Below are positions 1 to 13,454 of a stretch of DNA of 16,161 nucleotides, piece after piece (positions within the stretch are counted from its first letter, which is position 1; the number at the start of each line of letters is the position of its first letter). The DNA comes from a virus. Its lineage: Duplodnaviria; Heunggongvirae; Uroviricota; Caudoviricetes. The notes below the pieces were generated by a model. The model did no database searches, had not been told where the DNA came from, and saw only the letters and a program-made list of their open reading frames with translations. The position numbers were made by a program, and so were the translations under genes. Where the stretch lies: IMG/VR virus record IMGVR_UViG_2737471845_000010, positions 1-16,161 of that record; one strand, written 5' to 3'.

Positions 1-655
1 CCGCCACACGTGCAAACAGCACCTGCAGTTTACTGTAATCGGCCTCATTCGGTAACTGCCACTGGCTGGTACCAAACCAGTGCGAAGCCATGTTTTTCTT
101 TCCGGTGGCTTCAGCTATCTGTTTTGACGTTATCCCCAGTGATTCACGCGCATCACGAAAGTAAGCAATCAGCGGGGCCATTACGTGCTGCTTAAGCTCG
201 CGCCCTTTTGCTGCATAACCGTCACTTTTGAGCTGGTATGACCCCTGATAATGTTCAGCAAACAGAATGCGCTCTGTTGCCGGGAAATATGCCCGTAAAC
301 TTTCCTTATTGCACCCGTTCCAGCGTCCGGACGGCTTCGCCCAGATAATGTGGTTCAACACATTAAAACGTTCACGCATCATGAGTTCGGTGTCAGATGC
401 CAGTCGATGACCACAGAACAGGTAAAGACTTCCGGCAGGCTTCAGTACCCGCCAGAACTGCGCCAGACACTGGTCCAGCCATTGCAGGTAATCATCATCG
501 CCCTTCCACTGGTTATCCCAGCCCTCAGGCTTCACTTTAAAGTATGGCGGGTCTGTGACTATCAGATCGACGGAGTTTTCCGGTAAGGTCCGGATAAATT
601 CCAGGCAATCAGCGTTGATTAACTCACAACTGGATATTTTTACAGTATTAGCCAT
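1..655 (-). CDS. DNA methyltransferase with DPPY motif (N6-adenine/N4-cytosine class, phage Dam-like); 3' end lies beyond the window start
   Basis: Reverse-strand reading frame open from ATG at 655 to the window edge with no stops (not in the ORF track because it has no in-window stop). Translation begins MANTVKISSCELINADCLEFIRTLPENSVDLIVTDPPYF, showing the DPPY catalytic motif and an upstream SAM-binding-like segment. Plus-strand ORFs 10..195 and 350..586 are antisense to it. Confidence 0.85.
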   Translation of the reverse strand, partial: MANTVKISSCELINADCLEFIRTLPENSVDLIVTDPPYFKVKPEGWDNQWKGDDDYLQWLDQCLAQFWRVLKPAGSLYLFCGHRLASDTELMMRERFNVLNHIIWAKPSGRWNGCNKESLRAYFPATERILFAEHYQGSYQLKSDGYAAKGRELKQHVMAPLIAYFRDARESLGITSKQIAEATGKKNMASHWFGTSQWQLPNEADYSKLQVLFARVA

Positions 656-805
656 AGATCAGTAAGCACTTCTCTGATAGGCTCATACCGCTTTTGCGCA
701 AAGCAGATGGGCCTGAGGTTTGCTTGTGATCCCAACGCATGAGCAGATGGCTGGCAGGTGCCGCTAACACCCACCAGCCGCCCATTACCACAAATTAAAA
801 AGCCT

Positions 806-1003
806 TCACTGCGGAAGGCGTCTGTAACAACCGAACTGATAATCTGCCAGACCCGCCATAACAAGCTGGGTCAGTATTAACTGGCAGCGTTCGCGTGAAA
901 GGTAAGTATTCTGCGCAATTTCCCCGACGGTCGCCGGTTCGGTGACGCTTAATTCATTAAACACCACTCTGGCGGTTTTGGTCATATCCTGCTGTTTTAG
1001 CAT
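806..1003 (-). CDS. small (65 aa) putative winged-helix DNA-binding protein, possibly FaeA/PapI-like
   Basis: ATG at 1003 preceded by AGGGA about 8 nt upstream; ends at TGA 806..808. The sequence (…ATVGEIAQNTYLSRERCQLILTQLVMAG…) resembles a small wHTH regulator. The longer tracked ORF up to 1225 is read-through of AT-rich non-coding DNA. Confidence 0.45.
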   Translation of the reverse strand: MLKQQDMTKTARVVFNELSVTEPATVGEIAQNTYLSRERCQLILTQLVMAGLADYQFGCYRRLPQ

Positions 1004-1228
1004 GTCTTTTTCCCTATTCCGGTTAACGTGACATACCAATAACTCTTGTCTGAAAAGCCAGCAAGCTGAAAAACCGGTATTCGTAACCACCAGCGCGTTT
1101 AACGTACTGCACCACTTTTCGGGCACAAAAAACCCGCCTAACGGCGAGCTTAAGCTGTGTAGCGAAGTAACCACTCTTAACACACTAAGCGAAAAAATGC
1201 GGACCGCGTTAGTGATTTTTAGCAAGTT

Positions 1229-1259
1229 TTGCTTTATTTTTCCTACGTACAGTAAAAAT
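1229..1259 (+). promoter_or_regulatory. candidate sigma70-type promoter for the 336-aa gene (TTGCTT, ~18 bp spacer, TAAAAA)
   Basis: AT-rich divergent intergenic region 1004..1320; hexamers read by eye only. Confidence 0.25.
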
Positions 1260-1320
1260 AAGAAATCAATTCCAGCCAGGCTGGCTGAGTTAACACAGGT
1301 CTTAGAATGAGGGAACTTCT

Positions 1321-2331
1321 TTGTACGAAATACATTACGACGTTGAGTCTGAACAGCAAGCTTTTGAATTACTTGAACGTTACCTAAACGGACAAGCTTT
1401 ACCCGAAAAAATTAGTTTCAATGGTTGGCCAAGTCTAACCATCAGGTTGACTGGTGAAAAATTCAACAAATCACTCACACCTTCAGTTATGAAAGGATTT
1501 GTTGAAATGCAATCGCAACTCAATAAGTCTTATGCGCTAGCAAAGTTCGGAACTCCTGATGTCCGCAGGCTAACAAAAGAAGAACTTGATGCTTTAGAAA
1601 TTGAAGTTACAGTAGAGCAAGGTTCATCTCTTGTAGAGATTAACATTGATGGCTTCCTAAGCAAGCTTACGCACGAACTGGTAGGGAAAATGAACGCCAC
1701 AGAGATTGTATTTACGGTTCTCGGTGCTGCCGTTATATGGGGCGGTGTAACCGTCTTCAAACGCTATCTGGATAACCGTAAAGATACTCGGTTGGCTGAA
1801 ATTGCTAAAGAAGGCGACAAAGAACACCTACGCGCAATGCAAGTGATGACACAGGAGGAAACAAAACGCCTCCAAATCATCTCAGAAATGGTGGCTAAAA
1901 AACCTCTACTCGACAATATGGATCGAATGTCTTATGACGCTAAAACCACCATGGTTAAATCTTTCGTGCGTTCAGATTCAGCAGAAATTGACGGTGTCAC
2001 AATAGATTCAGAAACGGCAAAAGAGCTAGTAACAAATGCTCGTCGGCGCTCAGTTGAAATGAGAATAGACGGTATATACCGTATCGAAGAAGTGAATAAT
2101 ACCGACCCCGAAAGCTTCAAAGTTAAGGTTCGAAAGGTCGATTCTGATCAACGTTTGACCTGCGTTGTTCAGGATATATTCCTTGATGAATCAGGGAACA
2201 AAGAAGCCTTACAGCGAGCTGAATGGGAAAGAAAGCCTGTGCATTTAAGCATCAATGCCAAACACATTGATGGAGATATCAAGTCCGCCGTAATTTTACA
2301 TGTGAAAGATGTTGAAGATAAGCCCGAGTAA
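1321..2331 (+). CDS. hypothetical 336-aa protein with one central transmembrane segment; AT-rich inserted accessory gene of unknown function
   Basis: Long ORF with TTG start preceded by GAGGGAA; no in-frame ATG further upstream. Central hydrophobic stretch IVFTVLGAAVIWGGVTVF followed by a basic patch KRYLDNRK. The DNA is visibly more AT-rich than the flanking prophage genes. Convergent with Q. No recognisable catalytic motif. Confidence 0.7.
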   Translation: MYEIHYDVESEQQAFELLERYLNGQALPEKISFNGWPSLTIRLTGEKFNKSLTPSVMKGFVEMQSQLNKSYALAKFGTPDVRRLTKEELDALEIEVTVEQGSSLVEINIDGFLSKLTHELVGKMNATEIVFTVLGAAVIWGGVTVFKRYLDNRKDTRLAEIAKEGDKEHLRAMQVMTQEETKRLQIISEMVAKKPLLDNMDRMSYDAKTTMVKSFVRSDSAEIDGVTIDSETAKELVTNARRRSVEMRIDGIYRIEEVNNTDPESFKVKVRKVDSDQRLTCVVQDIFLDESGNKEALQRAEWERKPVHLSINAKHIDGDIKSAVILHVKDVEDKPE

Positions 2332-2350
2332 TCGGGCTGTCTGGTTTCAA
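2321..2350. terminator. hairpin AGCCCGA-gtaa-TCGGGCT overlapping the stop codon of the 336-aa gene, between convergent genes
   Basis: Perfect 7-bp inverted repeat at 2321..2338 followed by a moderately T-containing tract; lies between the 1321..2331 gene and the 3' end of Q. Confidence 0.4.
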
Positions 2351-2727
2351 GATTCCACTTCGGCATCCATTTCTAAACTTACATCCAACATACTCAGGCA
2401 ACCGTCGATAAACCCTTCAGCCATCTGTATCTCTATACGTATCAATTTCTCATCCTTCCAACGCGCCTTTGCAATCTTGCGCTTGGATATCCTGTATAAA
2501 TAATGTGCCACAAGAAGCGAATGCTCATAAGGCCTTTTTTGCTTTAAACAAGCAAGACAACCTTCAATAATTAATGCGTCACTATCTGAACAAGCCAGGC
2601 GTTTCTTACTGGTATAGGGCAGAAGTCCCTTAAACCCGGCAGCTATAGGTGAATAGTCCACACCCGAGCTATCACTAGCCGCCCATGCCCCCCAACGCTC
2701 AAGAACCATCTGAATATCACGCGCCAT
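2347..2727 (-). CDS. late-gene antiterminator Q (phage 21/82/DLP12 QuuD-like family)
   Basis: Translation MARDIQMVLERWGAWAA…IAAGFKGLL… matches my recollection of Q-family proteins of about 127 aa. ATG at 2727 preceded by GGTGG. Sits immediately downstream of rusA, as in the DLP12-type nin region. Confidence 0.8.
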   Translation of the reverse strand: MARDIQMVLERWGAWAASDSSGVDYSPIAAGFKGLLPYTSKKRLACSDSDALIIEGCLACLKQKRPYEHSLLVAHYLYRISKRKIAKARWKDEKLIRIEIQMAEGFIDGCLSMLDVSLEMDAEVES

Positions 2728-3088
2728 CGTTACCACCTGTAATTTCGTAAATCTTCACACCCAGCCGACCACCAGGTACGCGCTGACCGCGCACAATATT
2801 AATTTCATCAAACTGCTCGTCGTCGATAAGCAACCCCGCATGTGTCAGTGCATCCAGTGGTGCTTTCAGAATATTGTCCAGGTCACGACGGCGCTTATCC
2901 GGTGGCTCTGCAGTAATTTTTATTGCCAGCCTTCCGGACAGATTTAATTTCAGCCGCTGCTGGCGAACAATGAGCGCCACATCACGGCGATAACGCTCAC
3001 CGGCTTTTGATACAAAATATGTGCTGCCACGACGTCGCCAGTAGGTGTTTACCGTCGGCGGGTAAGGCAAAACAAACTCTATACGCAT
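2717..3088 (-). CDS. rusA: RusA-family Holliday junction resolvase
   Basis: Translation MRIEFVLPYPPTVNTYWRRRG…DKRRRDLDNILKAPLDALTHAGLLIDDEQ… carries the RusA hallmark segments (PPS/TVN…Y; RRRDLDN; DAL…AG…DD). RBS AGAGG 7 nt upstream of ATG 3088. Confidence 0.9.
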   Translation of the reverse strand: MRIEFVLPYPPTVNTYWRRRGSTYFVSKAGERYRRDVALIVRQQRLKLNLSGRLAIKITAEPPDKRRRDLDNILKAPLDALTHAGLLIDDEQFDEINIVRGQRVPGGRLGVKIYEITGGNDGA

Positions 3089-3100
3089 CAGTAACCTCTT

Positions 3101-4150
3101 TTACCCGAGCACGCCGGTTGCAAAGGCGTGATCAAGAAAACGAAAAATTAAATCAACCTGGGAACCATGCTTTTCTTCGAACGCCAGCGGATCCGCATGA
3201 AGTTCGTTGTGATGTTCCCGGCATAACGGTAGCGTGAAAATATCGTGGGATTTTGTTCCCATTCCGCCCTGACCATGACCAATCAGGTGATGGGGATCGT
3301 CGGCTGGCTTACCACAGCACGCACACGGCTGTGTCTTTACCCAGCGTGTATATTTCTCATTTATCCAACGGCGACGTTTAGGTCGCTTCATGAAAGATTC
3401 CGGAGACTCCGGATCTACGGCAATGCTGACCACCGTCTTTTCCTGTGGTGCGTTCTGTTGCTGGTGGGCGTGAGGTGGTAGCGCAATATTTTTTGTGCGC
3501 TGCTTCAGTATGCTGGTAGCTGTCTGCTCTCCCGGTACGATGTCGCTTTCGCGGTACAGGGAACGGATTTTTTCCACCGGTAATCCCAGCGAACGGCGTA
3601 ATACTGCTTCCGGTAGCGCGTCCGCCACCTGATTGCAGACCGCCCACCAGGATAATTCAGCCAGCGATAACTCCCGCTCCTGCGTGCCATTCATTGCGTG
3701 ACGGATGACGTCAATCATCCAGGCTGTCAGATTTTGATGAGCAAGTTGCTCTAGCGATTCCGAGGTCTGGTCGCGCAGTTGATTGTCACAGTGCCAGCAC
3801 AACACCATCGCGCCGGTACCGTAACGATGTATGACGATTTCACTGTGATGATAGTCACCATGAGGCCACTGGCAGGATTTGACATGACGCAGGAGCCAGT
3901 CAGATAGTGCACCAGCGCCGCCAGCAGCACGAATCACCCGCTCATCGCTGAAAAATGGCAGTAATGATTTATCTTCCGCCAGCGGCTGGCGAACGGCAGG
4001 AACAGCTCCGGACGGCAGACCGCGCATGTTTTTCGGTTCCGGCTCCACCAGCACTCGAGGGCTATGAAATACCTGCATGGATTCACGGCCAGGTTTAAGG
4101 ACCACCAGCCCAAGTTCCGGTACATGAACAGGTCGAAGCAATACCCGCAC
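3101..4150 (-). CDS. nin-region protein with C-terminal HNH-like zinc-binding motif (DUF968-like)
   Basis: 349-codon ORF; GTG start at 4150 preceded by GGAGG and coupled to the upstream gene's stop. C-terminus contains CACCGKPADDPHHLIGHGQGGMGTKSHD…PLCREHHNELH, a Cys/His-rich HNH-type pattern. Confidence 0.75.
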   Translation of the reverse strand: MRVLLRPVHVPELGLVVLKPGRESMQVFHSPRVLVEPEPKNMRGLPSGAVPAVRQPLAEDKSLLPFFSDERVIRAAGGAGALSDWLLRHVKSCQWPHGDYHHSEIVIHRYGTGAMVLCWHCDNQLRDQTSESLEQLAHQNLTAWMIDVIRHAMNGTQERELSLAELSWWAVCNQVADALPEAVLRRSLGLPVEKIRSLYRESDIVPGEQTATSILKQRTKNIALPPHAHQQQNAPQEKTVVSIAVDPESPESFMKRPKRRRWINEKYTRWVKTQPCACCGKPADDPHHLIGHGQGGMGTKSHDIFTLPLCREHHNELHADPLAFEEKHGSQVDLIFRFLDHAFATGVLG

Positions 4151-4151
4151 G

Positions 4152-4424
4152 TTACCTCCAGATGCGTTGCTGGAATGTGCGGGACGGACGCGGTGGGCGT
4201 TCAGAGTAAGGCAGTCTGACTGAGATTATCCAGTGTCGGAAGTCGAGGCTGAGGTCTTTCTGAAACTCGTAACCACGTCTGCGGTAGTTCTGAATTAGCC
4301 ACTCTGCCTGCTCTTCAGTGCATGGATCATGCTGGAACCAGTCGGTTTTAAATGCGCGCGAACGCCGCCCGTATCTGCTGGCAGGGGCGGTATCAGAATT
4401 GTGTAATTTGGTGTGGTGCGCCAT
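4152..4424 (-). CDS. hypothetical nin-region protein (start uncertain; may extend to TTG at 4478)
   Basis: ORF ends one base before the start of the HNH-like gene, suggesting translational coupling. First ATG is at 4424 (MAHHTKLHN…); the tracked ORF starts at TTG 4478. Neither start has a strong RBS. Confidence 0.45.
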   Translation of the reverse strand: MAHHTKLHNSDTAPASRYGRRSRAFKTDWFQHDPCTEEQAEWLIQNYRRRGYEFQKDLSLDFRHWIISVRLPYSERPPRPSRTFQQRIWR

Positions 4425-4605
4425 CTGTTTTCTCTGCTGGCGCAGCAGGTGCCAGTTGTTCAGGCTGGCGTGCGGCAATATTGTCTCTGATTTCTGTTGT
4501 CGTCAACCGCTTCTGTGCTTCCTCTCTTGATGAGTGAAGCGATTAACTTTACTATTTACTTAACAGGTTTTTCCTGTACCACGATTCCCTATACAGGAGG
4601 CCAGC

Positions 4606-4896
4606 ATGAGTGACGACAAAAAAATTGAGTTCAGCACCAGCGATGTGCTGAATGCTTTGTTGCATCGCCAGCAGAACATGCAACACCTGGCAACACAAGA
4701 AAACGTTGATAACCTCCGTCGTGAGATGGATACACGCCTGAACGTTATAGATAAGCGCCTCGACAAAATGGAGCAAGAAACCGAAAGACGGTTCAACAAG
4801 CTGGAAACCAAGTTTGATCGACTCCAGTGGTTTATTGTTGCTGCAGCTCTGGCTCTCATCTTCAAGGATTACATCTTCAGAATTATTGGTGCTTAG
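4606..4896 (+). CDS. small coiled-coil protein with C-terminal membrane anchor (96 aa), opposite in orientation to the surrounding operon
   Basis: Strong RBS AGGAGG 6 nt upstream of ATG. Charged heptad-like N-terminal region followed by the hydrophobic C-terminal stretch WFIVAAALALIF. Immediately followed by a terminator. Confidence 0.7.
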   Translation: MSDDKKIEFSTSDVLNALLHRQQNMQHLATQENVDNLRREMDTRLNVIDKRLDKMEQETERRFNKLETKFDRLQWFIVAAALALIFKDYIFRIIGA

Positions 4897-4901
4897 TAAA
4901 T

Positions 4902-4929
4902 CCGGCCCCGTTTTCGGGGCTGTCTTTTC
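4902..4929 (+). terminator. rho-independent terminator downstream of the 4606..4896 gene
   Basis: GC stem (G)GCCCCG-tttt-CGGGGC(C) followed by a T-rich tract (tgtcttttc). Confidence 0.6.
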
Positions 4930-5089
4930 ACATCTGCATCAGACTTTCCACCAACTTTTTATTGCCAGCTCCTGAAATCTGATCTACCTTATGCGCGTCA
5001 GAACGGCGCAATGCGCTCGCCTGTGATACGTTTACTTGTCATTGGTGGCAACAGATAACGGCAATTGTTGTTTCTGTTTGTTTCCTTCA

Positions 5090-5124
5090 AAAACCCCGGA
5101 CCGTCAATCCGGGGTTTTTGTTTG
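5090..5124. terminator. bidirectional rho-independent terminator (tR-like) ending the minus-strand early block
   Basis: AAAAACCCCGGA-ccgtcaa-TCCGGGGTTTTTG: perfect 7-bp GC-rich stem flanked by an A-run on one side and a T-run on the other, so it reads as an intrinsic terminator on both strands. Confidence 0.65.
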
Positions 5125-5204
5125 TTATCCCCAGCGGCAAATCGAATACACCATCAGCGCCACCGCCATCGCAATTCCTGCCGTTGTGAATGCTTCAGGC
5201 CAGG

Positions 5205-5567
5205 TCATCGTAAAATATCCTCCACGCTTATCAGTCCGTTTCGCTCCAGGTAGTCCATCACCTTATCCGGCAGTTTGCAGTCCGGCTTCGCTTTCCTCAG
5301 TTGCCAGGTTAACTGCTTTACCTGCATGGTTAACTCGTCGACCAGACGCTGATACCCCACTGGTTTGTATTCATAAAATTTACCAACTGGCGCTGCTGCC
5401 AGCGATTGCAGTGCAATTTCCAGAACAGCAATATCCATCTTATATGCGCGAATGAGGTCATGGTCGATTGTACCTGGTATGCACAGTCTCTGTGATTCAA
5501 TAGTCTCCTCTGCGTGGGCTATTAACTGCTCTTTGGTAAACCGTTCTTCTTTGGTCAAAGTCGCCAT
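5205..5567 (-). CDS. hypothetical early protein (120 aa)
   Basis: ATG at 5567 overlaps the stop of the upstream small gene; GGAAGAG upstream. No recognised motif. Confidence 0.65.
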
Positions 5568-5568
5568 T

Positions 5569-5742
5569 TTACTCTTCCACTTCGTCTTTTATTTCGTAAA
5601 TTGAGTAATTGCAGTGATTAAAGAAAACATCAATTGCCTCGTTTTCTATTTCCTCAGGAGTCGCGTCATCATCCACTTCAAATACATCTTCACGCACGCC
5701 ACCAACAATCCTCGTTTCGATAACTATTTTGAATTTTCGCAT
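5569..5742 (-). CDS. small acidic hypothetical protein (57 aa), below the ORF-track size cutoff
   Basis: Hand translation [65 protein letters not shown] upstream of ATG 5742; fills the gap between neighbouring genes. Confidence 0.5.
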
Positions 5743-5832
5743 TGTCTTACCACCATTTCTGGCAGTCTCCTGATGTTCTGAGGGTGCAGAAATCCCTCCG
5801 GTTAAGGATTTTATTTTCGATAATAATATTGG

Positions 5833-6189
5833 TTATTCTGGTCTGGTTTTTGTCGCCCTGCGTATCCGCGCTTTCACATTGCGCTCAATCTGAATTAGCT
5901 TTTCTATATTTTTACGTCTTTCCCGTTCCTCCTGACGCAATTGTTTTACATCATCTGCCAGTCTGGTTTCTCTTTTCGCCACAGAGAGCATCCAGTCAAA
6001 TGGCTCCACAACTGCACCGCAGATTTTACAACGGACATGACGCTCTTTTTCATCAACCCTGACAGAGGCGTGATGGCAATATGGTTTCTCCGATGGCTCA
6101 TAAAGAAAATTAACCTGATTACGTGGGTCATCCTCTTTTACCGGAAATAAAACAATATTACTTAACTCATCTTCTGGTTTTATTTCCAC
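5833..6189 (-). CDS. hypothetical protein with zinc-ribbon-like motif (CHH…C-x2-C)
   Basis: GTG start at 6189 preceded by AAAGGAGA; the longer tracked ORF (to 6264) would overlap the upstream gene. Contains PYCHHASVRVDEKERHVRCKICGAV. Confidence 0.6.
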   Translation of the reverse strand: MEIKPEDELSNIVLFPVKEDDPRNQVNFLYEPSEKPYCHHASVRVDEKERHVRCKICGAVVEPFDWMLSVAKRETRLADDVKQLRQEERERRKNIEKLIQIERNVKARIRRATKTRPE

Positions 6190-6190
6190 G

Positions 6191-6520
6191 TCACTCTCCT
6201 TTGATGCGAATACCTGCAACACGCAGTGCATGCTCCAAATCAGCCAGATAAAGCCAGCGCCCATGCTCTTTGGGCATCATGACATATTGCTCATCGGCAT
6301 TTATCGGATGACCCCTTCGAAGGTCATAGCAAGTCGGTAAATGCACTGCCCTTGCTTCCAGCTCTGCAATGCGTTTATCTCTGGCTTCCAGTTCGTCCAG
6401 TAACGCCAGCACAACCTGCGGTGTGACTTTCATGCGAAACGCCAGCAGTTTCTGAGGTGTGGACACTGTTTTTATTGCCTCTGCCACATCACGCAACGCC
6501 TGGTTGTTAATCTGATTCAC
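6191..6520 (-). CDS. hypothetical early protein with coiled-coil segment (109 aa)
   Basis: GTG start at 6520 with GAGGTG RBS; start overlaps the stop of the upstream gene (GTGA). LLDELEARDKRIAELEA heptad-like segment. Confidence 0.65.
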   Translation of the reverse strand: MNQINNQALRDVAEAIKTVSTPQKLLAFRMKVTPQVVLALLDELEARDKRIAELEARAVHLPTCYDLRRGHPINADEQYVMMPKEHGRWLYLADLEHALRVAGIRIKGE

Positions 6521-6831
6521 TGCGTCACCTCACGATTCCTCAACCAGATACAAACCGGTCCATCCTCGGTGTCATGAATGGAGCCAATAAACCAGCCCTC
6601 ACCCTCTGGTCGTTCAGGTTCCCATGCGGAAATATCGGGACCATCTGCATCCGGGTTAAAATCATCTTCATCCATACTGCGAATAGTCCACTGAAGATTA
6701 TTTGCCTTCATCCAGGCGTTAAATTCTTCCGTCGAAATATACTCCCGGCCATCACAAAATTTTTCATATTCAGGATGCGTCCAGCAGCCATATTCATCAC
6801 GTTCTACCGGCAGTTCTTTGATTTCAATCAT
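6517..6831 (-). CDS. hypothetical acidic early protein (104 aa)
   Basis: Internal ATG at 6831 preceded by GGAG at suitable spacing; the first ATG of the tracked ORF (6858) has no RBS. Confidence 0.6.
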   Translation of the reverse strand: MIEIKELPVERDEYGCWTHPEYEKFCDGREYISTEEFNAWMKANNLQWTIRSMDEDDFNPDADGPDISAWEPERPEGEGWFIGSIHDTEDGPVCIWLRNREVTQ

Positions 6832-6844
6832 AACATTAACTCCA

Positions 6845-7021
6845 TTAAGATAATGCAAAACAAATTAACCACACCACGACAACCGATGCTATTAACACCC
6901 TGATTGCAAACAGCGGGCTGATATGTCGAAAAGGATTTTCCCAGATAATAAAAGCCGCTGCCAGAAATGCACTGATAAGTAAAACAATAACAAACAGCTC
7001 AATTTTGATTATCCAGAACAT
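6845..7021 (-). CDS. small hydrophobic membrane protein (58 aa)
   Basis: Two predicted hydrophobic helices (IIKIELFVIVLLISAFLAAAFII and LFAIRVLIASVVVVWLICFAL); start overlaps the upstream stop. Confidence 0.45.
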   Translation of the reverse strand: MFWIIKIELFVIVLLISAFLAAAFIIWENPFRHISPLFAIRVLIASVVVVWLICFALS

Positions 7022-7023
7022 AT

Positions 7024-7320
7024 TCACTGCATCGCCTTCTGTAAAATAACCGCATGCCCCAGCTTCTCCGCCAGCGCCAGTTCTGCCTTAGCACCCGCCG
7101 ACCGCTGCCAGCCATTCAGCATGTAAATCGCATCCACGCAACGTATCATCGCCATGCAGATATCCATGTACTGCGACTGAGTCAGTCCGTCCGGAAGTAC
7201 TGCCGGGTTTAAGACGGTATGCCCTTCCCGTTTCAGTTCCTCTTCTGCCTTGTGGAACGCCTCACGGTTGAAATTTTTATACCCGGTCATCGGACCGGCG
7301 ATATAAACCCTCACCCTCAC
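7024..7320 (-). CDS. DUF4406-like protein (nucleoside 2-deoxyribosyltransferase-like fold)
   Basis: GTG start with strong AGGAGGTG RBS, overlapping the upstream stop. N-terminal RVYIAGPMTG…FN…AF motif typical of this family. Confidence 0.7.
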   Translation of the reverse strand: MRVRVYIAGPMTGYKNFNREAFHKAEEELKREGHTVLNPAVLPDGLTQSQYMDICMAMIRCVDAIYMLNGWQRSAGAKAELALAEKLGHAVILQKAMQ

Positions 7321-7709
7321 TCAATCACCTCCTGAAAATTACCCCGATAGAACGCCAGTACACGTTGCATTGATTCGCTGTTACGGCATTCCCGGCAAAT
7401 TATGTTCATGTCTCTGTCGTAGCGACGGATTTCACCATCAGGTAACTTCCGGACCAGTGCCGGGTCAGCTTTCTTCGGAGTTTTACACCACGCCTGATAC
7501 GCCTGTTCTGATACAAAAACACCGTGTTTACCGGATATGTACAAATCACCACAAGCAACCACATCCACAAGACAACGTCTGACCGTATGCCAGCCCGCCC
7601 CCGTTGCCCTCTCCAGTTGCGACATCGTCATGCGTTTGTTCCTGTGTATCAGCCCGATAATTCGCGCCTTCAGTTCTTCCCGCTGTTCGGGTGTAAAAAC
7701 GCTTGCCAT
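7317..7709 (-). CDS. hypothetical protein with predicted HTH segment (130 aa)
   Basis: AGGAGG RBS upstream of ATG 7709; segment MTMSQLERATGAGWHTVRRCL resembles a helix-turn-helix. Confidence 0.7.
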   Translation of the reverse strand: MASVFTPEQREELKARIIGLIHRNKRMTMSQLERATGAGWHTVRRCLVDVVACGDLYISGKHGVFVSEQAYQAWCKTPKKADPALVRKLPDGEIRRYDRDMNIICRECRNSESMQRVLAFYRGNFQEVIE

Positions 7710-7723
7710 GAGTCCTCCTGAAA

Positions 7724-8470
7724 TTACTTCACAACCCTTAAATGGCTGACATTTGAACGCCAGCTCTCCCAGTTAAAATTCACCCAGCGACCACCGTTCA
7801 TGGTCATGCGGTCCATCACGCGCTCGCCAAGCAGCGTATTCATTGCCGTATGGTTCAGGTTCGTCAGCATCCCGACGCTGTGCATCGAGGCTGTTCTGCG
7901 ATCGACTATCTGGTTCAGTGTGACCTGTTCGTTACGCGTATCCCGCTGCATACCAATTTCATCCAGGACAAGCAGGTCAACTTCACACAACCCCTGCAAA
8001 AATTTTTCGCCCGAGTTTTTGTTGTCGTAGTTGCCGTGTAACGCCAGCATCACATCCGCCACCGTCACCACAATCACGCTGCGACCTTTCGCCAGAAGAT
8101 GGTTGCCAATGGCTGCTGCCAGATGATTCTTTCCGGTACCCGGCTTACCGCTGAACACGAAATTTGTGCATCCGGTCATCATTTCTTCCGCGATGGATTT
8201 TGCCTGGCTCAGCGCGTGGCGTTGGCCATCGTTCTTCACCTGGTAATTCGCAAACGAACACTTCTGGTGCAACAGTTGGATACCGGAACGCTTCATAATT
8301 TTCTCCACCCGGATCTGGCGATTCTGGCGGTTAATTTCCTCACTACGCTTTCGCCCTTCTGCAAGCTGCCACTCTCGCCACTCGTCCACTGTCCGGTACG
8401 GCGCGGTTACATGCTGCGGGGCCAGCTTACGGATACGCTCAAGAACACCACCTGCCGCAATATTTTTCAT
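7724..8470 (-). CDS. DnaC/IstB-like AAA+ replication protein (helicase loader; Rac YdaV-like)
   Basis: Walker A motif GKPGTGKNHLAAAIG and Walker B-like LLVLDEIG; positioned immediately downstream of the replication initiator gene. Confidence 0.9.
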   Translation of the reverse strand: MKNIAAGGVLERIRKLAPQHVTAPYRTVDEWREWQLAEGRKRSEEINRQNRQIRVEKIMKRSGIQLLHQKCSFANYQVKNDGQRHALSQAKSIAEEMMTGCTNFVFSGKPGTGKNHLAAAIGNHLLAKGRSVIVVTVADVMLALHGNYDNKNSGEKFLQGLCEVDLLVLDEIGMQRDTRNEQVTLNQIVDRRTASMHSVGMLTNLNHTAMNTLLGERVMDRMTMNGGRWVNFNWESWRSNVSHLRVVK

Positions 8471-8476
8471 AACCCG

Positions 8477-9424
8477 TTACCCCCTGAATCCCGGCGGAAT
8501 TTCGGTATCCGGTTCAGAAATGTGATTCACACAACGCTGTACAGGCGAACGCCCCAGGCGGATGACCAGTTCGTCCCATTTTTCACGAAGCTTTGACGGG
8601 CTCATGACGTTTCTTACCCAGAATGGATCCCGTTGTACCCGACTGAACATTTCGCAAATTTGCCTGTGAGTTCTGCCATCCAGCACCCGCATTGTGCGCA
8701 CGTCATTGGCCCATGCTGTCCAGTTGGGTTCTTTCGGTCGCGTAATCTCGCCATCATCGCTGGCAGCCTGTTCGTAAAGACTCACGATTCGCCCCCAGAT
8801 CCACTGCGCACACGTCAAATCTTCCTGGCTGCCCCACTGGCGTTTTTTCGCACTGAACACAACCGCGTCAGGATGTCGGGTTAAAAAATCCTGTTCAGCC
8901 GTCTCCTCGTCCGGTTGCGAAGCTTCCGGACGAAAAGATCTTTTATCTGACGGATCAGGTTTTAATACTGACGGATCGGGGCCAACCATCGCCCCCCTAT
9001 CCGGCTGTTTTTTATCAATGGTTGATCCATCAAAATTTGAGGGGTCAACCGTTGAGGGGGCAATATTTGACGGGTCATTTTTTGCCTGGCTAATTTTTCT
9101 TTTCGGTTTATATGCCTCACGCGCCGCCGCTGCTGCTGCTTCGAGTTTTTCCACATTAAGACGGTAGATATTGCTTTCATTACGCCCACCGACCTTACGT
9201 TCCTCCTTCGTCAGCCAGCCGTTCTTTTCCAGTTCCGCTATCGCCGCTTTAACCGTTGATTCACTCTTTGCCCCAATCTGACGACGAATGGTCTCCACTG
9301 CAGGCCATGACACACCTTCGTCATTGCTGTAATCTGCAAGGCGAGCCATTACTGCCACCCTGGATAAGATCATGCCGGTGAAGGCACACCCTTCCCAGAC
9401 AAGACCATGAAGCTTGCTGCTCAT
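8477..9424 (-). CDS. phage replication initiation protein (lambda O-like functional analogue) with internal iteron origin
   Basis: GGAG RBS upstream of ATG 9424. N-terminal HTH-like segment; central repetitive DPSN/DPSV/DGST protein segment encoded by the iterons; followed by the DnaC-like gene. Confidence 0.85.
   Translation of the reverse strand: MSSKLHGLVWEGCAFTGMILSRVAVMARLADYSNDEGVSWPAVETIRRQIGAKSESTVKAAIAELEKNGWLTKEERKVGGRNESNIYRLNVEKLEAAAAAAREAYKPKRKISQAKNDPSNIAPSTVDPSNFDGSTIDKKQPDRGAMVGPDPSVLKPDPSDKRSFRPEASQPDEETAEQDFLTRHPDAVVFSAKKRQWGSQEDLTCAQWIWGRIVSLYEQAASDDGEITRPKEPNWTAWANDVRTMRVLDGRTHRQICEMFSRVQRDPFWVRNVMSPSKLREKWDELVIRLGRSPVQRCVNHISEPDTEIPPGFRG
8946..9115. repeat. candidate origin of replication: about five iterons (consensus TGA(C/G)GG(A/G)TC) plus adjacent AT-rich tract, inside the initiator gene
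   Basis: Copies at approximately 8948..8956, 8969..8977, 9038..9046, 9052..9060 and 9068..9076 (TGACGGATC, TGACGGATC, TGAGGGGTC, TGAGGGGGC, TGACGGGTC), followed by the AT-rich stretch 9077..9115. Architecture parallels lambda ori within gene O. Confidence 0.6.
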
Positions 9425-9447
9425 AAAAAACTCCGAACACCGTGCTT

Positions 9448-9873
9448 TTAGTGCATCACCACAGCATTTCCTGCCGGGCCACCACGATTCATCTGATTGA
9501 AACCGGCGATTGCCACTGCGACAAAATCATCAGCGTCTCTCACCAGTCGTTCCCGCGTCTCCACCAACTCCCGAAAATAGACTGAACTGTGGCTGCGCAT
9601 CCGGGCCACCAGCAGAGGTGGCATTGCTTTTTCGATAGCCGGTAACAACGCCTGAATTTTTTTAACCGCATCAGGAGTGTCTTTCTCTACCCAGCGGAAA
9701 ATTTTCTGGGTATTGCGAGCCAGGGCTTCCGGATGGCTATCGTCATACAGTTCAGGAAACGTCATACCCAACTCAAAATAAGCCTGGGTTATTCCAGCTG
9801 CTGGAACTTTTTCACCGTCCGGATGCGCCCAGACATTCATCGCCATGCGGATGTGTTCATGCTTGATTTTCAT
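9448..9873 (-). CDS. YdaT-like (CII-position) regulatory protein
   Basis: Begins MKIKHEHI, as I recall for the Rac YdaT family. ATG overlaps the stop of the Cro-like gene (ATGA). Position corresponds to cII in lambdoid layouts. Confidence 0.7.
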   Translation of the reverse strand: MKIKHEHIRMAMNVWAHPDGEKVPAAGITQAYFELGMTFPELYDDSHPEALARNTQKIFRWVEKDTPDAVKKIQALLPAIEKAMPPLLVARMRSHSSVYFRELVETRERLVRDADDFVAVAIAGFNQMNRGGPAGNAVVMH

Positions 9874-10085
9874 GAATCATTCTTTCCTTCGTTCGAGGTG
9901 CTATCCTGCTTCTTGTAAAGTTCTGGGTTGTATTTCAATTCACCGTTAGTAATTTCATCCAGCTCCATTGCTCGAAGTTTGGGAATAACTGCTTTCCACC
10001 GCACAACAGCCACATGTGAAATTCCAAGAGCCTCAGCTACTAGTCGCTTTTTTTTGAAATAGCGCAGAACATCATCTTTGAACAT
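9870..10085 (-). CDS. Cro-like repressor (DicC/YdaS-like small HTH protein)
   Basis: AGGAGAG RBS upstream of ATG 10085. 71 aa with HTH (RLVAEALGISHVAVVRWKA). Divergent from the CI-like repressor gene across an operator-bearing intergenic region. Confidence 0.8.
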   Translation of the reverse strand: MFKDDVLRYFKKKRLVAEALGISHVAVVRWKAVIPKLRAMELDEITNGELKYNPELYKKQDSTSNEGKNDS

Positions 10086-10114
10086 AAAACTCTCCTGTTA
10101 TTTCGAGCAGGAGG

Positions 10115-10176
10115 GTAACAATAGTTACATAGCAATGTCAACCATAGCAACATCACTTGGTAGTAACATTGGTTAC
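10115..10176. promoter_or_regulatory. OR-like operator region: two GTAAC-N4-GTTAC palindromes between the divergent cro-like and repressor genes
   Basis: GTAACaataGTTAC at 10115..10128 and GTAACattgGTTAC at 10163..10176, the latter directly abutting the repressor ATG. A TTGACA hexamer is present on the minus strand in this interval. Confidence 0.6.
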
Positions 10177-10851
10177 ATGAAAAACACTATCAGCGAACGT
10201 ATTCGGAATCGTCGAAAAGACGTTGGATTAACCCAACAGCAGGTTGCGAAAGCAATCGGCATATCTCGTGTATCCGTAACAAAATGGGAAAATGGCTCTT
10301 CAAAACCTGACGGTGAGAATTTACATCTACTGTCAAAATTGCTTTCCAAATCTCCTGAATGGATTCTTTATGGAAAGGACGGTCACGATAAAACCGATGA
10401 TCTGCGTCTGAATCAGTACCTTTACATTAGTGACAACATCGCCCGGTTGCCCGTTTTAACGTGGGAACAGGCTGGTTATTGGGATATGAGTTGCCCAGTA
10501 ACCGAGATTCCTGGTATTAAGAATTGGGTTGATGTCATGACAAAAACCGCTGAAAACTCTTTTTTATTGCATGTTGAGGGAGATGCGATGACAAACTCTA
10601 ACGGCCTCCCAACCATCCCCGACGGATCTACCGTGCTGATCACACCATGCTCAAGTAACATTAGAGAACTGGCGGGGAAAATAATCTTAATCCAATTGGA
10701 AGGAACGCCAAACGTAACACTAAAAAAAGTTGCGATTGACGGACCAAACATCTATCTGTTGTCACTGAATCCGCTTTACAAACCCATCGAACTGAATGGC
10801 GGTTACACCATTAAAGGTAAAGTTTCACAAATACATCAATACTTAGATTGA
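10177..10851 (+). CDS. CI-like prophage repressor (N-terminal XRE-type HTH plus C-terminal S24 LexA-like domain)
   Basis: HTH segment LTQQQVAKAIGISRVSVTKWENG. C-terminal domain aligns by eye with lambda CI (…EGDAMT…; …VTLKKV…). Start chosen at ATG 10177; the tracked ORF begins at TTG 10078 and would overlap the operators and the cro RBS. Confidence 0.85.
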   Translation: MKNTISERIRNRRKDVGLTQQQVAKAIGISRVSVTKWENGSSKPDGENLHLLSKLLSKSPEWILYGKDGHDKTDDLRLNQYLYISDNIARLPVLTWEQAGYWDMSCPVTEIPGIKNWVDVMTKTAENSFLLHVEGDAMTNSNGLPTIPDGSTVLITPCSSNIRELAGKIILIQLEGTPNVTLKKVAIDGPNIYLLSLNPLYKPIELNGGYTIKGKVSQIHQYLD

Positions 10852-10855
10852 GTCA

Positions 10856-10883
10856 GAACCCGCATTCATTGCGGGTTTTTTAT
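10856..10883 (+). terminator. rho-independent terminator after the repressor gene
   Basis: AACCCGCA-ttcatt-GCGGGTT stem-loop followed by TTTTTT. Confidence 0.7.
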
Positions 10884-10912
10884 GCCCTCAAACGTACCTT
10901 TTGCAACATCGT

Positions 10913-10939
10913 ATTGACTCATGTGGTAACTCTTGTTAC
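10913..10939 (+). promoter_or_regulatory. OL/PL-like element: TTGACT hexamer followed by the third operator palindrome GGTAACtcttGTTACC
   Basis: Same GTAAC-N4-GTTAC half-sites as the two OR sites (10925..10938), located at the head of the plus-strand early-left operon. The -10 element is not clear. Confidence 0.5.
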
Positions 10940-11259
10940 CTTAACAACATACCAACCCACTCCGCCCCACAGAATGCAGGGCAATACTTCGAGTTACCAG
11001 GCAGTGGTCAGGGGGTAAGTAGCCAGCCCGAGGCGTAAGAACATGACGGCAGGGTTCAACTTTAACTATGCAGCAGGTTTTTGTTCCGCTACCCCGGCGT
11101 TAAGGGGAAACAGAGGATTTCTCAGTGGGCGAAGTCAAACATCAGAATGGAAGGCATCCTGGGCTCTGCAAAGAAGCAGCAATGGCGCTTTATATTGACA
11201 TCAGCGCCATTGCCGGACAGCTAAGAATTATCAGGGCGGTAACTAAGCGGTATGCGCCT

Positions 11260-11460
11260 TTACTTCAGAAAGTCTCTTGTGAGTGCACCGAAGATATTGT
11301 CAACGATTTCGTCATCGAACTGCGAAGACTCATCTTCAGTTACAAGGTGACCACAATTTTTGCAGATGGCTCCCGCGAAACTGTCAGAGCCCTGCGGCTT
11401 AAAGGATGTGTCAAAGACTTCGCCACCACATTCTGGGCAAGAAAACTTGATTGTATTCAT
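11260..11460 (-). CDS. small zinc-ribbon protein (66 aa), antisense to the early-left operon
   Basis: Two CxxC pairs (CPECGG … CKNCGH) with an acidic C-terminus; GAGAGGAAA RBS about 6 nt upstream of ATG. The overlapping plus-strand ORF 11125..11481 is the alternative reading and contains several rare AGA/AGG codons. Confidence 0.45.
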   Translation of the reverse strand: MNTIKFSCPECGGEVFDTSFKPQGSDSFAGAICKNCGHLVTEDESSQFDDEIVDNIFGALTRDFLK

Positions 11461-11552
11461 AACCAATTTCCTCTCGAGTAACAGACCCCTCAGAGGATAC
11501 CACCTCGCCTGACGTGGTTAAAAGCAGGCAACGCTAACCACAAGGAGCCGAC

Positions 11553-11750
11553 ATGCAGAAACGAGAACCCGTCATCATCGCGCCAGACTATACCGATGAT
11601 GAACTTTATGAGTGGATGCGCCAGAAAATTAATGCAGCGCAGGATTTGAAATGGGCCAATGAAGCTAGGGCTAAGCAGGCTGAAAATCTGTCCGCTCTGG
11701 AGCAGGATATCACCAGGCTGGAAAAAGCAGCGGCATTAAGCATTGCCTGA
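11553..11750 (+). CDS. small hypothetical early-left protein (65 aa)
   Basis: RBS AAGGAG 6 nt upstream of ATG; coiled-coil-like C-terminus. Confidence 0.65.
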   Translation: MQKREPVIIAPDYTDDELYEWMRQKINAAQDLKWANEARAKQAENLSALEQDITRLEKAAALSIA

Positions 11751-11793
11751 ATGATTACATACCCACGTTAATAGCTAACCAACGAGGCTAATA

Positions 11794-12201
11794 ATGGAAT
11801 TTAAAGATTTACCAAAAGAAATCCAGACAATTGCTGCAACGACTCTCGGTGATAGTCTGGTGAAAATTGACCCGGCATACACCAAAAAAGAAACCATCGA
11901 TAATATGGTTCGTAATGTGCGCAATGCTTTTTCTGGGCTATATGGTTCTGATAATCAAAAGCAGGAAAGCGATGTTAATAAACGGGTAATTTCTGTTTGC
12001 GTGAATGGCCATGTTCTTTCATCAATCAAAACAGAAACGGCGACAGTCTTCGATTGCCTTTGCATTGTACAGAGCCTTGTTGATGCCCTGTTTCGTTCAG
12101 TGAATTTAGAAAATGACGCAAATCTGCGAGGGCGCACAATAGCACATCCATATGCACATACTTTAGGCTCTGTGGATATCAAAGATCCCACAAATCTTTA
12201 A
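11794..12201 (+). CDS. hypothetical early-left protein (135 aa)
   Basis: RBS-like ACGAGG upstream of ATG; 3' end overlaps the convergent minus-strand gene by about 23 bp. Confidence 0.6.
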   Translation: MEFKDLPKEIQTIAATTLGDSLVKIDPAYTKKETIDNMVRNVRNAFSGLYGSDNQKQESDVNKRVISVCVNGHVLSSIKTETATVFDCLCIVQSLVDALFRSVNLENDANLRGRTIAHPYAHTLGSVDIKDPTNL

Positions 12202-12412
12202 TGAAATAGTTAACGCGAATTGTACTTGCTCTTTCAGTTGCTTTCAGAATACGCGTTGAAACTGCTGGCGGTAATTTGGTATTCCATTTATTAAAATCAT
12301 GCCCGGGAAAGTACTCTTCGAAAATACTTTTAACTGCAGACTCGCCTATTGAAATGCTGCTTACCATGCGATTTTGATAAAGGCATTTAGCAATAAGAGT
12401 TGATTTTAACAT
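12179..12412 (-). CDS. hypothetical 77-aa protein encoded opposite to the early-left operon
   Basis: Strong RBS AGGAGGG 4 nt upstream of ATG 12412; convergent 3' overlap with the 11794..12201 gene. Confidence 0.55.
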   Translation of the reverse strand: MLKSTLIAKCLYQNRMVSSISIGESAVKSIFEEYFPGHDFNKWNTKLPPAVSTRILKATERASTIRVNYFIKDLWDL

Positions 12413-12747
12413 TCACCCTCCTGAAGGTTGGTAATTAAGGAGTTCTCCACGGGTGGGGTGGAGTGCGTGCGCCGGACACGGGTGAGCATCCGGCACTGAC
12501 AGTTTACTGAAAGGATATTTCTCTGAAAAGTCAGAGCATAACGCGAAAGCGCACGGCGAGGTTGCTGGTTCATAGATAGCCTGTCGTTAAATTTTCGTCG
12601 ACCGTGCGCTTCCGGTTGTGGCACCCCGCGAAATGGCGCGGCGGTAAGTATGGCGGGGTTATCCTTACCCCCACTGGTGGCACCGGGTTGTCAGGTTGAC
12701 CATACGCCTGAGTGACAACCCCGCCACAACATCTCCATGTTGAGGCT

Positions 12748-12802
12748 TGTGTGAGACCTTTGGCGGCATCAGTTTAATTGCTGGCTGATGTCCGCCCTTT
12801 TT
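12748..12802 (+). ncRNA. dicF: DicF-like small RNA (cell-division inhibitor sRNA family) ending in an intrinsic terminator
   Basis: Sequence …CCTTTGGCGGCATCAGTTTAATTGCTGGCTGATGTCCGCCCTTTTT closely resembles my recollection of E. coli DicF (GGCGG…AUCAGUUU…CCGCCCUUUUU). Long imperfect hairpin GGCGGCATCAG / CTGATGTCCGCC plus T-run. Located directly upstream of a dicB homologue, as in Qin. 5' boundary is approximate. Confidence 0.55.
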
Positions 12803-12985
12803 AAAGTGAATTTTGCGATGCGGTGAATGCGGCTAAGCGCACGCGGAACAGTTAAAAAGGCCAGTTGACTTCCGTATTGGTTCTTATGGGTGGGTTCTCT
12901 GTATCCGGCGTTAATTGTTAACTGGTTAACGTCACCTGGAGGCACCAGGCACCGTATCACAAAATTCATTGTTGAGGACGCGATA

Positions 12986-13174
12986 ATGGAAACGTTATTA
13001 CCAAACGTTAATACGTCTGAAGGTTGTTTTGAAATCGGTGTCAGAATCAGTAACCCTGTATTTACTGAAGATGCCATTAATAAGAGAAAACACGAACGGG
13101 AGCTATTAAATCAAATATGCATTGTTTCAATGCTGGCCCGTTTACGCCTGATGCAAAAAGGACGCTGCCAATGA
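12986..13174 (+). CDS. dicB: DicB-like cell division inhibitor (62 aa)
   Basis: Translation METLLPNVNTSEGCFEIGVRISNPVFTEDAINKRKHERELLNQICIVSMLARLRLMQKGRCQ is near-identical to the E. coli DicB sequence as I recall it. GAGGA RBS; the tracked ORF's upstream extension is not needed. Confidence 0.8.
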   Translation: METLLPNVNTSEGCFEIGVRISNPVFTEDAINKRKHERELLNQICIVSMLARLRLMQKGRCQ

Positions 13175-13374
13175 ATACAGCATTTGCACTCGTTCTGACA
13201 GTTTTTCTTAATACAGGCGAACCAGTCGATCTTGTTATTGGTATACATGACTCAATGAAAGAATGCATGGCTGCCGCAGCGGAACAGAAAATTCCCGGCA
13301 ACTGTTATCCGGTTGATAAAGTTATTCGCATGGACAATAACGAAATCCCGGCAGGACTTAAAACAGCACCGTAA
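13171..13374 (+). CDS. ydfD: YdfD-like small membrane/lysis protein (67 aa)
   Basis: ATG overlaps the dicB stop (ATGA). N-terminal hydrophobic helix AFALVLTVFL, then …CMAAAAEQKIPGNCYPVDKVI…, resembling Qin YdfD from memory. Same gene order as Qin dicB-ydfD. Confidence 0.6.
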   Translation: MNTAFALVLTVFLNTGEPVDLVIGIHDSMKECMAAAAEQKIPGNCYPVDKVIRMDNNEIPAGLKTAP

Positions 13375-13454
13375 TTAATATCCGGTTTCATTTTTATATG
13401 CCAGCAATGGCAGGGATTTGTTCACCATTAAATCTGTAATGAGGTTAAAACAAA

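Follow-up and report, generated by a model that had tools for sequence, protein, structure and literature searches.

The stretch analyzed here, 16,161 nucleotides (nt) of a tailed virus of the class Caudoviricetes (positions 1 to 16,161 of IMG/VR record IMGVR_UViG_2737471845_000010; hereafter the window), is a lambdoid prophage whose late operon opens with a conserved three-part module: a gene of 63-67 amino acids (aa) for a winged-helix protein, a leader of about 145 nt, and a DNA methyltransferase of about 350 aa. All relevant features of the module lie on the minus strand. The winged-helix open reading frame (ORF) occupies 806..1003, at the head of the Q-dependent late operon; the structured leader that follows it (leader 2) spans 650..796, and the methyltransferase begins at position 655 and runs off the start of the window. 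Our preferred reading, held with middling confidence, is that this is a late, Q-dependent, fail-safe module in which the winged-helix protein would regulate expression of the methylase through leader 2, through the leader in front of its own gene (leader 1), or through both, in a manner functionally like that of Com and mom in phage Mu. The ORF and methylase have been annotated as a pair since phages phiP27 and SfV, and the methylase family has already been studied biochemically, so the basic observation is not new.

Conservation of the winged-helix gene and its neighbor

With one genome taken per species, 34 loci of Enterobacterales were collected from E. albertii, Salmonella, Klebsiella, Citrobacter, Kluyvera, Buttiauxella, Enterobacter, Scandinavium, Mangrovibacter, Mixta, Proteus, Providencia and Plesiomonas. 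A methylase with a DPPY motif (~350 aa) lies downstream of the ORF in 31 of the 34, and in 30 of these the spacer measures 142-153 nt, a fixed distance that holds even where the small protein is only 41-60% identical. In the window, 150 nt separate the ORF stop from the methylase start, and these 150 nt are more conserved than the proteins on either side. Within E. coli, megablast searches of 5426 complete genomes placed the ORF with leader 1 at 4070 sites in 2143 genomes (~39%, up to 7 copies per genome) and the methylase at 2530 sites in 1875 genomes (~35%). The full junction of ORF, leader and methylase was present in 1874 records, compared with 1877 records that carry the methylase; in this species the methylase is essentially never found without the ORF. 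About 5 of 40 evenly sampled records held the ORF part of the junction only.

The first-pass annotation of this DNA had described the ORF as lying directly upstream of an orphan DPPY methyltransferase and divergent from an inserted membrane-protein gene (336 aa, at 1321..2331 on the plus strand), and this arrangement is confirmed. It had also proposed a regulatory linkage between ORF and methylase. With 31 of 34 loci keeping the pair, a functional or regulatory link is reasonable; the plain divergent promoter implied for 1004-1320 was not supported, as that region appears to be a late promoter followed by a terminator (pR'-tR'), described below.

The 65-aa ORF (ATG at 1003-1001, TGA at 808-806) is a real gene, and more than a chance frame. 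A Shine-Dalgarno sequence, AGGGA, lies at 1011..1015 on the minus strand, 7 nt before the ATG, and the arrangement AAGG[G/T]AAAAAGAC-ATG recurs across genera, which bears out the plausible ribosome-binding site noted earlier. The homology search that had been recommended for the product was productive: PHROG 331, whose function has not been assigned, matches residues 1-64 with E = 1.6e-36, and 286 homologues were found in a large protein set, with a canonical length of 63-65 aa; those of canonical length come from Escherichia, Shigella, Salmonella, Klebsiella, Citrobacter and Buttiauxella. The family is narrow: clustering of 1.8 billion proteins at 50% identity leaves only 86 representatives of it. 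ORF length (62-67 aa) and stop position are kept across genera, and the median pairwise ratio of nonsynonymous to synonymous substitution rates (dN/dS) of 0.23 indicates purifying selection; between the window and Salmonella, dN is 0.096 with synonymous sites near saturation. Longer gene models were considered and rejected. An N-terminally extended ORF (806-1225, 139 aa), like database entries of 94-110 aa, would cross tR' and pR', and it is the start MLKQQDM with its Shine-Dalgarno sequence that is conserved, the sequence upstream of that start being mosaic. Database gene calls of 72-110 aa are upstream start-codon extensions or artefacts, or else C-terminal junction variants.

The AlphaFold2 model of the 65-aa protein (mean predicted local distance difference test score, pLDDT, 90.5) has three helices, H1-H2-H3, followed by a β-hairpin wing (helices at 4-16, 26-33 and 37-49; strands at 53-56 and 59-62), the arrangement of a winged helix-turn-helix (HTH), as had been suspected from the sequence. 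Foldseek returned generic winged helices only: IclR, MarR/OhrR, dimerization domains of O-methyltransferases, SelB, and viral Z-alpha-like domains. In Pfam, every match to the protein fell below its cut-off, the best being TrmB (17.6 bits, E = 0.0034, against a cut-off of 25.6); no NCBIfam model for the protein was found, and the PADLOC defense-system models gave generic methylase matches and nothing meaningful for the small protein. RefSeq calls the product a "TrmB family transcriptional regulator" (it corresponds to phiP27 L23 and SfV orf47), a name that is, judging from the missing NCBIfam model and the Pfam scores below cut-off, a fold label only.

Two parts of the protein are invariant across the family, the N-terminus MxxxxDMT and helix 3, RCQLILTQLxMAGL, while helix 2 and the wing diverge. 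Nucleotide-level constraint was considered as the cause of the helix-3 invariance and rejected; synonymous codons there vary freely, and the constraint is therefore on the protein. The set in which these parts are invariant includes a second allele, ~50% identical, in phage mEp460, cdtI and Stx2c phages. This allele, carried by E. coli phages, was seen at 2501-2704 of locus L128 (mEp460), in L129 (a Stx2c phage), in phage cdtI and in Ayreon; leader 2 (153.7 bits in the covariance model described below) and the methylase again follow it, after 150 nt, and leader 1 is common to both alleles at ~84% nt identity although the proteins differ.

The methylase in the window (2..655, minus strand, ATG at 655-653) comprises the N-terminal 218 codons of a β-class N6-adenine DNA methyltransferase assigned to the M.EcoGII family. 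It scores 63.6 bits with Pfam N6_N4_Mtase (cut-off 26.7) and E = 4e-106 with PHROG 6025, and over 218 aa it is 89% identical to the enzyme of phage 1720a-02, which PMC5778455 describes as very similar to M.EcoGII. The C-terminus lies outside the window and was read from a stretch of E. coli PapRG-04-4 (locus L082) that is 98.5% identical to the window and in which the enzyme is 348 aa long. DPPY falls within the window; the L082 homologue (98% identical) has an N-terminal DPPY and a C-terminal FFMGSGS, and the N6_N4_Mtase domain, the DPPY motif and, by way of L082, the FxGxG motif occur in the β-class order. The methylase is classed as an orphan because no nuclease gene accompanies it in neighboring loci, where tRNA and lysis genes come next.

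According to the M.EcoGII report, the enzyme methylates adenine in any context, is silent in the lysogen, and is deleterious to the cell when expressed constitutively; the authors guess that it is switched on as the prophage goes lytic, and they ascribe the silence to ordinary prophage repression, without a specific mechanism (PMC5778455). By analogy, the methylase studied here is likely to be toxic on expression.

Gene order in relatives places the pair consistently after the antiterminator gene Q. RefSeq annotation of L082 lists antiterminator Q, an opposite-strand hypothetical protein, the "TrmB family transcriptional regulator", a DNA-methyltransferase, tRNA, holins, endolysin and terminase. 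The small ORF and methylase also follow Q in phiP27, SfV, Stx2a phages, phage 1720a-02, mEp460, and prophages of Pantoea and Cronobacter, with the order Q, small ORF, methylase, tRNA or stx genes, then lysis genes. The counterparts are L23/L24 in phiP27, just ahead of tRNAs and stx2e, and orf47/orf48 in SfV. The slot of the winged-helix ORF is the same one that stx genes occupy in Stx phages. Lambda orf-64 (322-516 of locus L127; lambda 44621-44815), which lies directly after pR' with the same position and length, was examined as a candidate relative and rejected; its sequence is unrelated.

Structured leader, terminators and late promoter region

The spacer between ORF and methylase contains a conserved structured RNA, leader 2 (650..796, minus strand), identified by RNAalifold in a 30-sequence alignment. 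RNAalifold and single-sequence folds agree on two domains. In the 5′ domain (739-785), helix P1 is formed by AUGGGC pairing with GCUCAU and encloses P2, a hairpin of 12-13 base pairs. The 3′ domain (656-732) is a long imperfect hairpin made of P3 (GGAUCAcAAGC with GCUUacUGAUCU; 722-732 with 656-667 in the window), P4 (GGCCcAU with AUGaGCC) and the apical hairpin P5. P3 takes in positions -12 to -9 and -6 to -1 relative to the methylase AUG, and the 12 nt just upstream of that AUG contain no Shine-Dalgarno sequence. The leader is thus predicted, from these folds, to sequester the methylase translation start in P3.

The pairing is supported by covariation in the alignment. Over the 30 sequences, 86.6% of cells are paired, compared with 27-41% when the partners are slid by 1-3 columns; pairs changed on both sides number 15, compared with 3-12 for slid partners, and the covariation score is 0.154, compared with 0.02-0.09. 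P2 has been wholly rewritten in Proteus and Plesiomonas and is still paired. Frequent G-U pairs fit the sense strand only, and the structure is therefore specific to the sense strand. The window copy has a minimum free energy of -63.7 kcal/mol (z = -3.85). A covariance model of the leader (R1) found a single strong sense-strand copy (98-172 bits) in each of 64 sources out of 66, 123.5 bits in the window, a partial copy (5′ domain only) in a Stx2k phage and none in PhiR5_1. Rfam 15 gave no match at E <= 1 over window positions 560-1400, nothing at the gathering threshold in the whole window, and nothing at leader 2 of a Salmonella locus (L090). In the Stx2k phage, phiSTEC1575-Stx2k, positions 3945-4100 of locus L083 hold the winged-helix gene with only the 5′ domain (P1/P2), and an unrelated HTH-protein gene comes next where the methylase would be expected; the 5′ domain is thus linked to the small gene, and the 3′ domain to the methylase.

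Further details of leader 2 were observed. Near the module, GATC occurs only at 657-660 and 728-731, which are the two strands of helix P3, and the copy at -6 to -3 relative to the methylase AUG (TGATCTATG) hardly varies between genera, a conservation explained by RNA pairing in P3. Between 680 and 785, two AUGRGC-type and two GCYCAY-type segments could pair alternatively, as a possible switch or pseudoknot; in Mixta (L116), a G-to-A change in the first of these segments and a C-to-U change in the third co-occur.

A terminator-like hairpin, GCCTTC-CGCAGT-GAAGGC followed by TTTTTAATTT, was found by a terminator scan at 792..819 on the minus strand, with the ORF TGA in its 3′ arm. It persists in relatives with different loops and C-terminal residues. 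E. coli, Salmonella and Enterobacter have a good T-run, whereas that of Kluyvera is weak and others are degenerate; Proteus lacks the hairpin altogether. The most fitting description is a second terminator that varies by lineage.

A second frame of 74 aa with a TTG start (640..864, minus strand) overlaps the 3′ end of the ORF, leader 2 and, by 16 nt, the methylase start. The first-pass annotation had raised the possibility that it is a remnant of a longer ancestral gene split by a frameshift and had suggested looking for an intact version in related prophages. No such version was found. The frame has no Pfam or PHROG match. A survey of 107 loci showed it closed 3 codons ahead of its stop in ~14 E. 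coli loci (~93% identical) and in almost all other genera, and spacer indels, compensating and non-compensating, break it in relatives. No longer homologue fusing the ORF with this frame exists among the database homologues. The frameshifted ancestor was therefore rejected; conservation of the stretch is due to the structured RNA of leader 2, and the 640-864 frame should not be annotated as a gene.

Upstream of the ORF, the sequence points to a late promoter region, pR' followed by tR', rather than a plain divergent promoter. The putative pR', with its Q-utilization (qut) region and initial transcribed sequence, is placed at 1150..1212 on the minus strand from homology and position. Its components are CTAACGCGGTCCGC at 1199-1212, a -10-like TAGTGT at 1182-1187, and GTTAAGAGTGGTTACTTCGC from 1181 downwards; the class to which the window belongs, common to phiP27 and many prophages, consists of a CTAACGCG..CGC block, a TAnnnT hexamer and then GTTAAGAGTGGTTACTTCGC. 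In three loci of this class (Stx2_EH2201, L069 and L079), the Q gene ends at a position homologous to ~1220 of the window.

The element tR' is an intrinsic terminator, AAGCUCGCC-GUUA-GGCGGGUUUUUU, at 1127-1151 on the minus strand (fold energy -14.4 kcal/mol); it was identified by eye, folding and conservation, and the terminator scan did not list 1127-1151. A hairpin with a T-run lies 104-155 nt before the ORF ATG in almost all related loci, despite unrelated upstream sequences, and the SfV annotation places a terminator at this site. In one class of loci, the sequence just upstream of the terminator aligns with lambda pR' (TTGAYT, a TAAATT -10 and the invariant AACGATGGG pause element), and the terminator comes a few tens of nt after the lambda-like -10 and AACGATGGG; it is therefore tR'. 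Q, a promoter and a nearby downstream intrinsic terminator, the parts of a lambdoid pR'-tR' unit, are all present, the promoter by homology with loci where Q abuts it. A stretch of 55 nt that includes tR' (1128-1182, minus strand) has 85-87% matches in lambda-like phages (434, ev243, Lambda_4C10 and others), lying ~2-4 kilobases (kb) from the right end of most such genomes, away from their own pR'.

Leader 1, the 116 nt between tR' and the ORF, has a linear motif, CTTGCTG-N12-CAAGAGTTATTGGTATGTCACG, at 1027..1065 on the minus strand, found by aligning 31 loci from Escherichia to Plesiomonas. Its cross-genus form is CTTGCTG-N12-CAGAGTTAYNTGTRTG, and its E. coli form is CAAGAGTTATTGGTATGTCAC. 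The motif is promoter-like, with two hexamers always 17 nt apart, but the -10-like one has G as its last base. A weak promoter, an operator and a site acting in RNA are all conceivable functions. The 31-locus alignment yielded neither a consensus RNA structure (folding z = +0.55) nor a clear dyad operator, and no second copy of the motif that might serve as an operator occurs within the 16-kb window.

On the minus strand the full order is Q, a head-on 336-aa gene, the putative pR', tR', leader 1, the ORF, the stop-codon hairpin, the spacer and the methylase start. The Q gene lies at 2347..2727 (minus strand; from RefSeq annotation of L082) and has 73% nt identity to Q of the Stx2a phage Stx2_EH2201. 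The 336-aa gene encodes a single-transmembrane protein (PHROG 6191, function unknown) and sits between Q and pR' in an inserted segment of ~1221-2346. In relatives, Q abuts pR' without an insert, and in phiP27 a GIY-YIG nuclease gene occupies that slot. The whole 1-2400 arrangement is found in only 76 of the 5426 complete E. coli genomes.

Possible modes of action and competing readings

If the module is read as a fail-safe device, it would keep a harmful methylase off in lysogens, and it probably does so, because M.EcoGII-type enzymes reportedly harm the cell when expressed constitutively. In the lysogen, transcripts from pR' would end at tR', any leakage past tR' would meet the second hairpin at the ORF stop, and on mRNA that passed both terminators the methylase start would be buried in P3, as a third layer. 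Three such layers would fit the reported lack of methylase expression in lysogens. In late lytic growth, Q-modified RNA polymerase would read the whole late operon; the winged-helix protein would be translated first, from its good ribosome-binding site, the methylase next, and progeny DNA would then be hypermethylated, against restriction. The winged-helix protein would be the module's dedicated nucleic-acid-binding regulator, setting the timing or level of methylase synthesis. This role is the most likely one for the protein because it is conserved together with the leader and the methylase and because its helix 3 is invariant; its target may be leader 2, the leader-1 motif or the two together, as RNA or DNA, and it may activate or repress. 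The mechanism, though hypothetical, is plausible.

Several observations weigh against this account. The pR' of the window is a putative one, assigned from homology and position. The fold is generic, and most proteins of this kind, judging from the Foldseek matches, bind DNA rather than RNA. The winged-helix gene outnumbers the methylase in E. coli (4070 versus 2530 places) and may have a role of its own; phiSTEC1575-Stx2k and PhiR5_1 keep it intact with other genes, not the methylase, behind it. Conversely, one Erwinia remnant has the methylase without the ORF or leader. Finally, the methylase was placed in the M.EcoGII family by way of the phage 1720a-02 homologue, not by way of the sequence of M.EcoGII itself.

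Some of these points lead to the best-surviving alternative, which is possible rather than probable: the winged-helix gene would be an autonomous unit of the "moron" type, consisting of a single gene between a leader-1 promoter of its own and a terminator, and the methylase would be a frequent downstream cargo. Its product would be a DNA-binding transcription factor, serving autoregulation, other prophage or host genes, or expression in the lysogen. Such a unit would account for a gene that is bracketed by intrinsic terminators, is commoner than the methylase in E. coli, persists without it in two inducible phages and forms an ORF-only junction in ~5 of the 40 sampled records; its closest folds are those of DNA-binding regulators, and the promoter-like TTGCTG-17 nt-TAYNTG/TATTGG of leader 1 is conserved across genera. 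However, the -10-like hexamer of that motif ends in G, not in the near-universal T, and no promoter was called there; as a remote operator it would need a second copy, which the 16-kb window lacks; and outside E. coli, leader and methylase almost always follow the ORF at fixed spacing.

About as plausible as that alternative is a specific form of the regulator reading, in which the winged-helix protein is an RNA-binding translational switch, taking the role of Com with a new structure: it would recognize the two-domain leader and open P3, so that the methylase is translated only in late lytic growth.

A partner of the methylase at the DNA level is improbable. Here the protein would target, limit or shield methylation, or would read N6-methyladenine (m6A), for example by masking hypermethylated phage DNA from m6A-dependent type IV restriction enzymes. 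There is precedent, in that prokaryotic winged-helix domains sense adenine methylation and M.EcoGII-modified DNA is a substrate of type IV enzymes that combine a winged helix with a nuclease (PMC11037411), and a partnership of this kind would suit both the tight co-conservation with the methylase and a helix 3 that stays invariant while the rest of the protein diverges. On the other hand, the DpnI-type winged helix is absent from the top structural matches, the protein occurs without the methylase, and a structured leader that hides the methylase start is left unexplained.

The remaining possibility, the one suggested by the first-pass annotation, is that the protein is a methylation-sensitive regulator like FaeA or PapI that acts at a divergent promoter, and that one frameshifted gene gave rise to both the ORF and the 640-864 frame; it is scarcely credible, since what speaks for it is a winged-helix fold beside an adenine methylase and a second frame that in the window stays open over the 76 codons before its stop and runs into the methylase start, whereas ORF length and stop are conserved across genera, the second frame is closed in most relatives, no fused homologue was found, and similarity to FaeA or PapI is lacking (no Pfam FaeA match even at E <= 1; neither protein among the top 50 Foldseek PDB matches; a PDB profile search without PapI; an hhalign probability of 1.65% with a PapI sequence). 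A fimbrial or Lrp context for a PapI-type switch was likewise missing, the setting being a lambdoid prophage late operon. The absence of GATC from 1004-1320, which had been taken to argue against a Dam/Lrp switch, is real and points the same way, but it is uninformative, as only ~1.2 sites are expected there by base composition.

Relation to known systems and significance

The nearest working analogy for the preferred reading, that of a dedicated regulator in a late fail-safe module, is com-mom of Mu, and it is an analogy only. In Mu, the ~60-aa protein Com binds mRNA beside a stem-loop that hides the start codon, and lysogens contain no detectable enzyme; Mu-like prophages have com in front of either mom or a non-specific adenine methylase, and the target gene carries Com sites at its 5′ end (PMC3299994; PMC6483171). 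As in Mu com-mom and the Mu-like prophage operons of FluMu (hin1523) and Pnme1 (nma1821), a gene for a ~60-aa protein here directly precedes, in the same operon, that of a harmful, late, adenine-modifying enzyme, and the translation start of the downstream gene is again in RNA secondary structure, here predicted from covariation and single-sequence folds. The differences are considerable. Com is a four-cysteine zinc finger, whereas the present protein has a winged-helix fold, a single universally conserved cysteine and no Pfam match to Com; com and mom overlap, whereas these genes lie 150 nt apart; the leader is much larger and has two domains; and the host phages are lambdoid and controlled by Q.

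Other comparisons concern single parts of the module. M.EcoGII and M.EcoGI of E. coli O104:H4 share with the present methylase the β-class order of DPPY, target-recognition domain and FxGxG, as well as the prophage setting; the passages of the M.EcoGII paper that were examined do not mention the upstream small gene, the leader RNA or the position after Q and pR'-tR' (PMC5778455). Late control in lambda (Q, pR', qut, 6S RNA and tR') and short pR' transcripts of the StxS type (PMC7547250; PMC6266700) resemble the proposed arrangement in having Q, a constitutive-type promoter and a nearby terminator, and some related loci keep the TAAATT -10 and AACGATGGG pause element of lambda. Unlike in lambda, a head-on gene of 1.1 kb parts Q from pR' in the window, the distance from promoter to terminator is much shorter than the 194-nt 6S RNA, and there is a second terminator-like hairpin after the first late gene.

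Controller (C) proteins of restriction-modification systems are similar in that the gene for a small protein of DNA-binding type lies just upstream of, and is co-transcribed with, an enzyme gene whose timing the C protein sets. They are Xre-type HTH dimers, however, which recognize C-box inverted repeats and regulate a nuclease gene; the present protein is a winged helix and not HTH_3, no nuclease accompanies the methylase, and leader 1 has no clear dyad. The likeness to TrmB, MarR and IclR regulators lies in the H1-H2-H3-wing fold (Foldseek query-normalized template-modeling scores of 0.75-0.83 for the N-terminal domains of IclR and OhrR), whereas the present protein has only 65 aa, is without an effector or dimerization domain, and scores below every Pfam cut-off. 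The literature searched held nothing specific on the small ORF or on the regulation of M.EcoGII-type genes. As far as Rfam and that literature show, the new elements are the fixed three-part module, the leader with its predicted sequestered start, the second terminator and the coupling to a winged-helix protein across genera.

M.EcoGII-type enzymes are common prophage cargo and are also used as laboratory reagents, and the ORF with leader 1 is found in Stx2-converting phages as well, just upstream of stx. The module offers a candidate anatomy for the silence of the methylase: two terminators, a leader that is predicted to hide the start, and a co-conserved winged-helix protein. If the protein controls the leader, lambdoid phages would have their own equivalent of Mu com-mom, assembled from unrelated parts, and the leader would represent a new family of cis-regulatory RNA. 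Should the RNA-switch reading be true, the module would represent a widespread control circuit for the hypermethylation of phage DNA.

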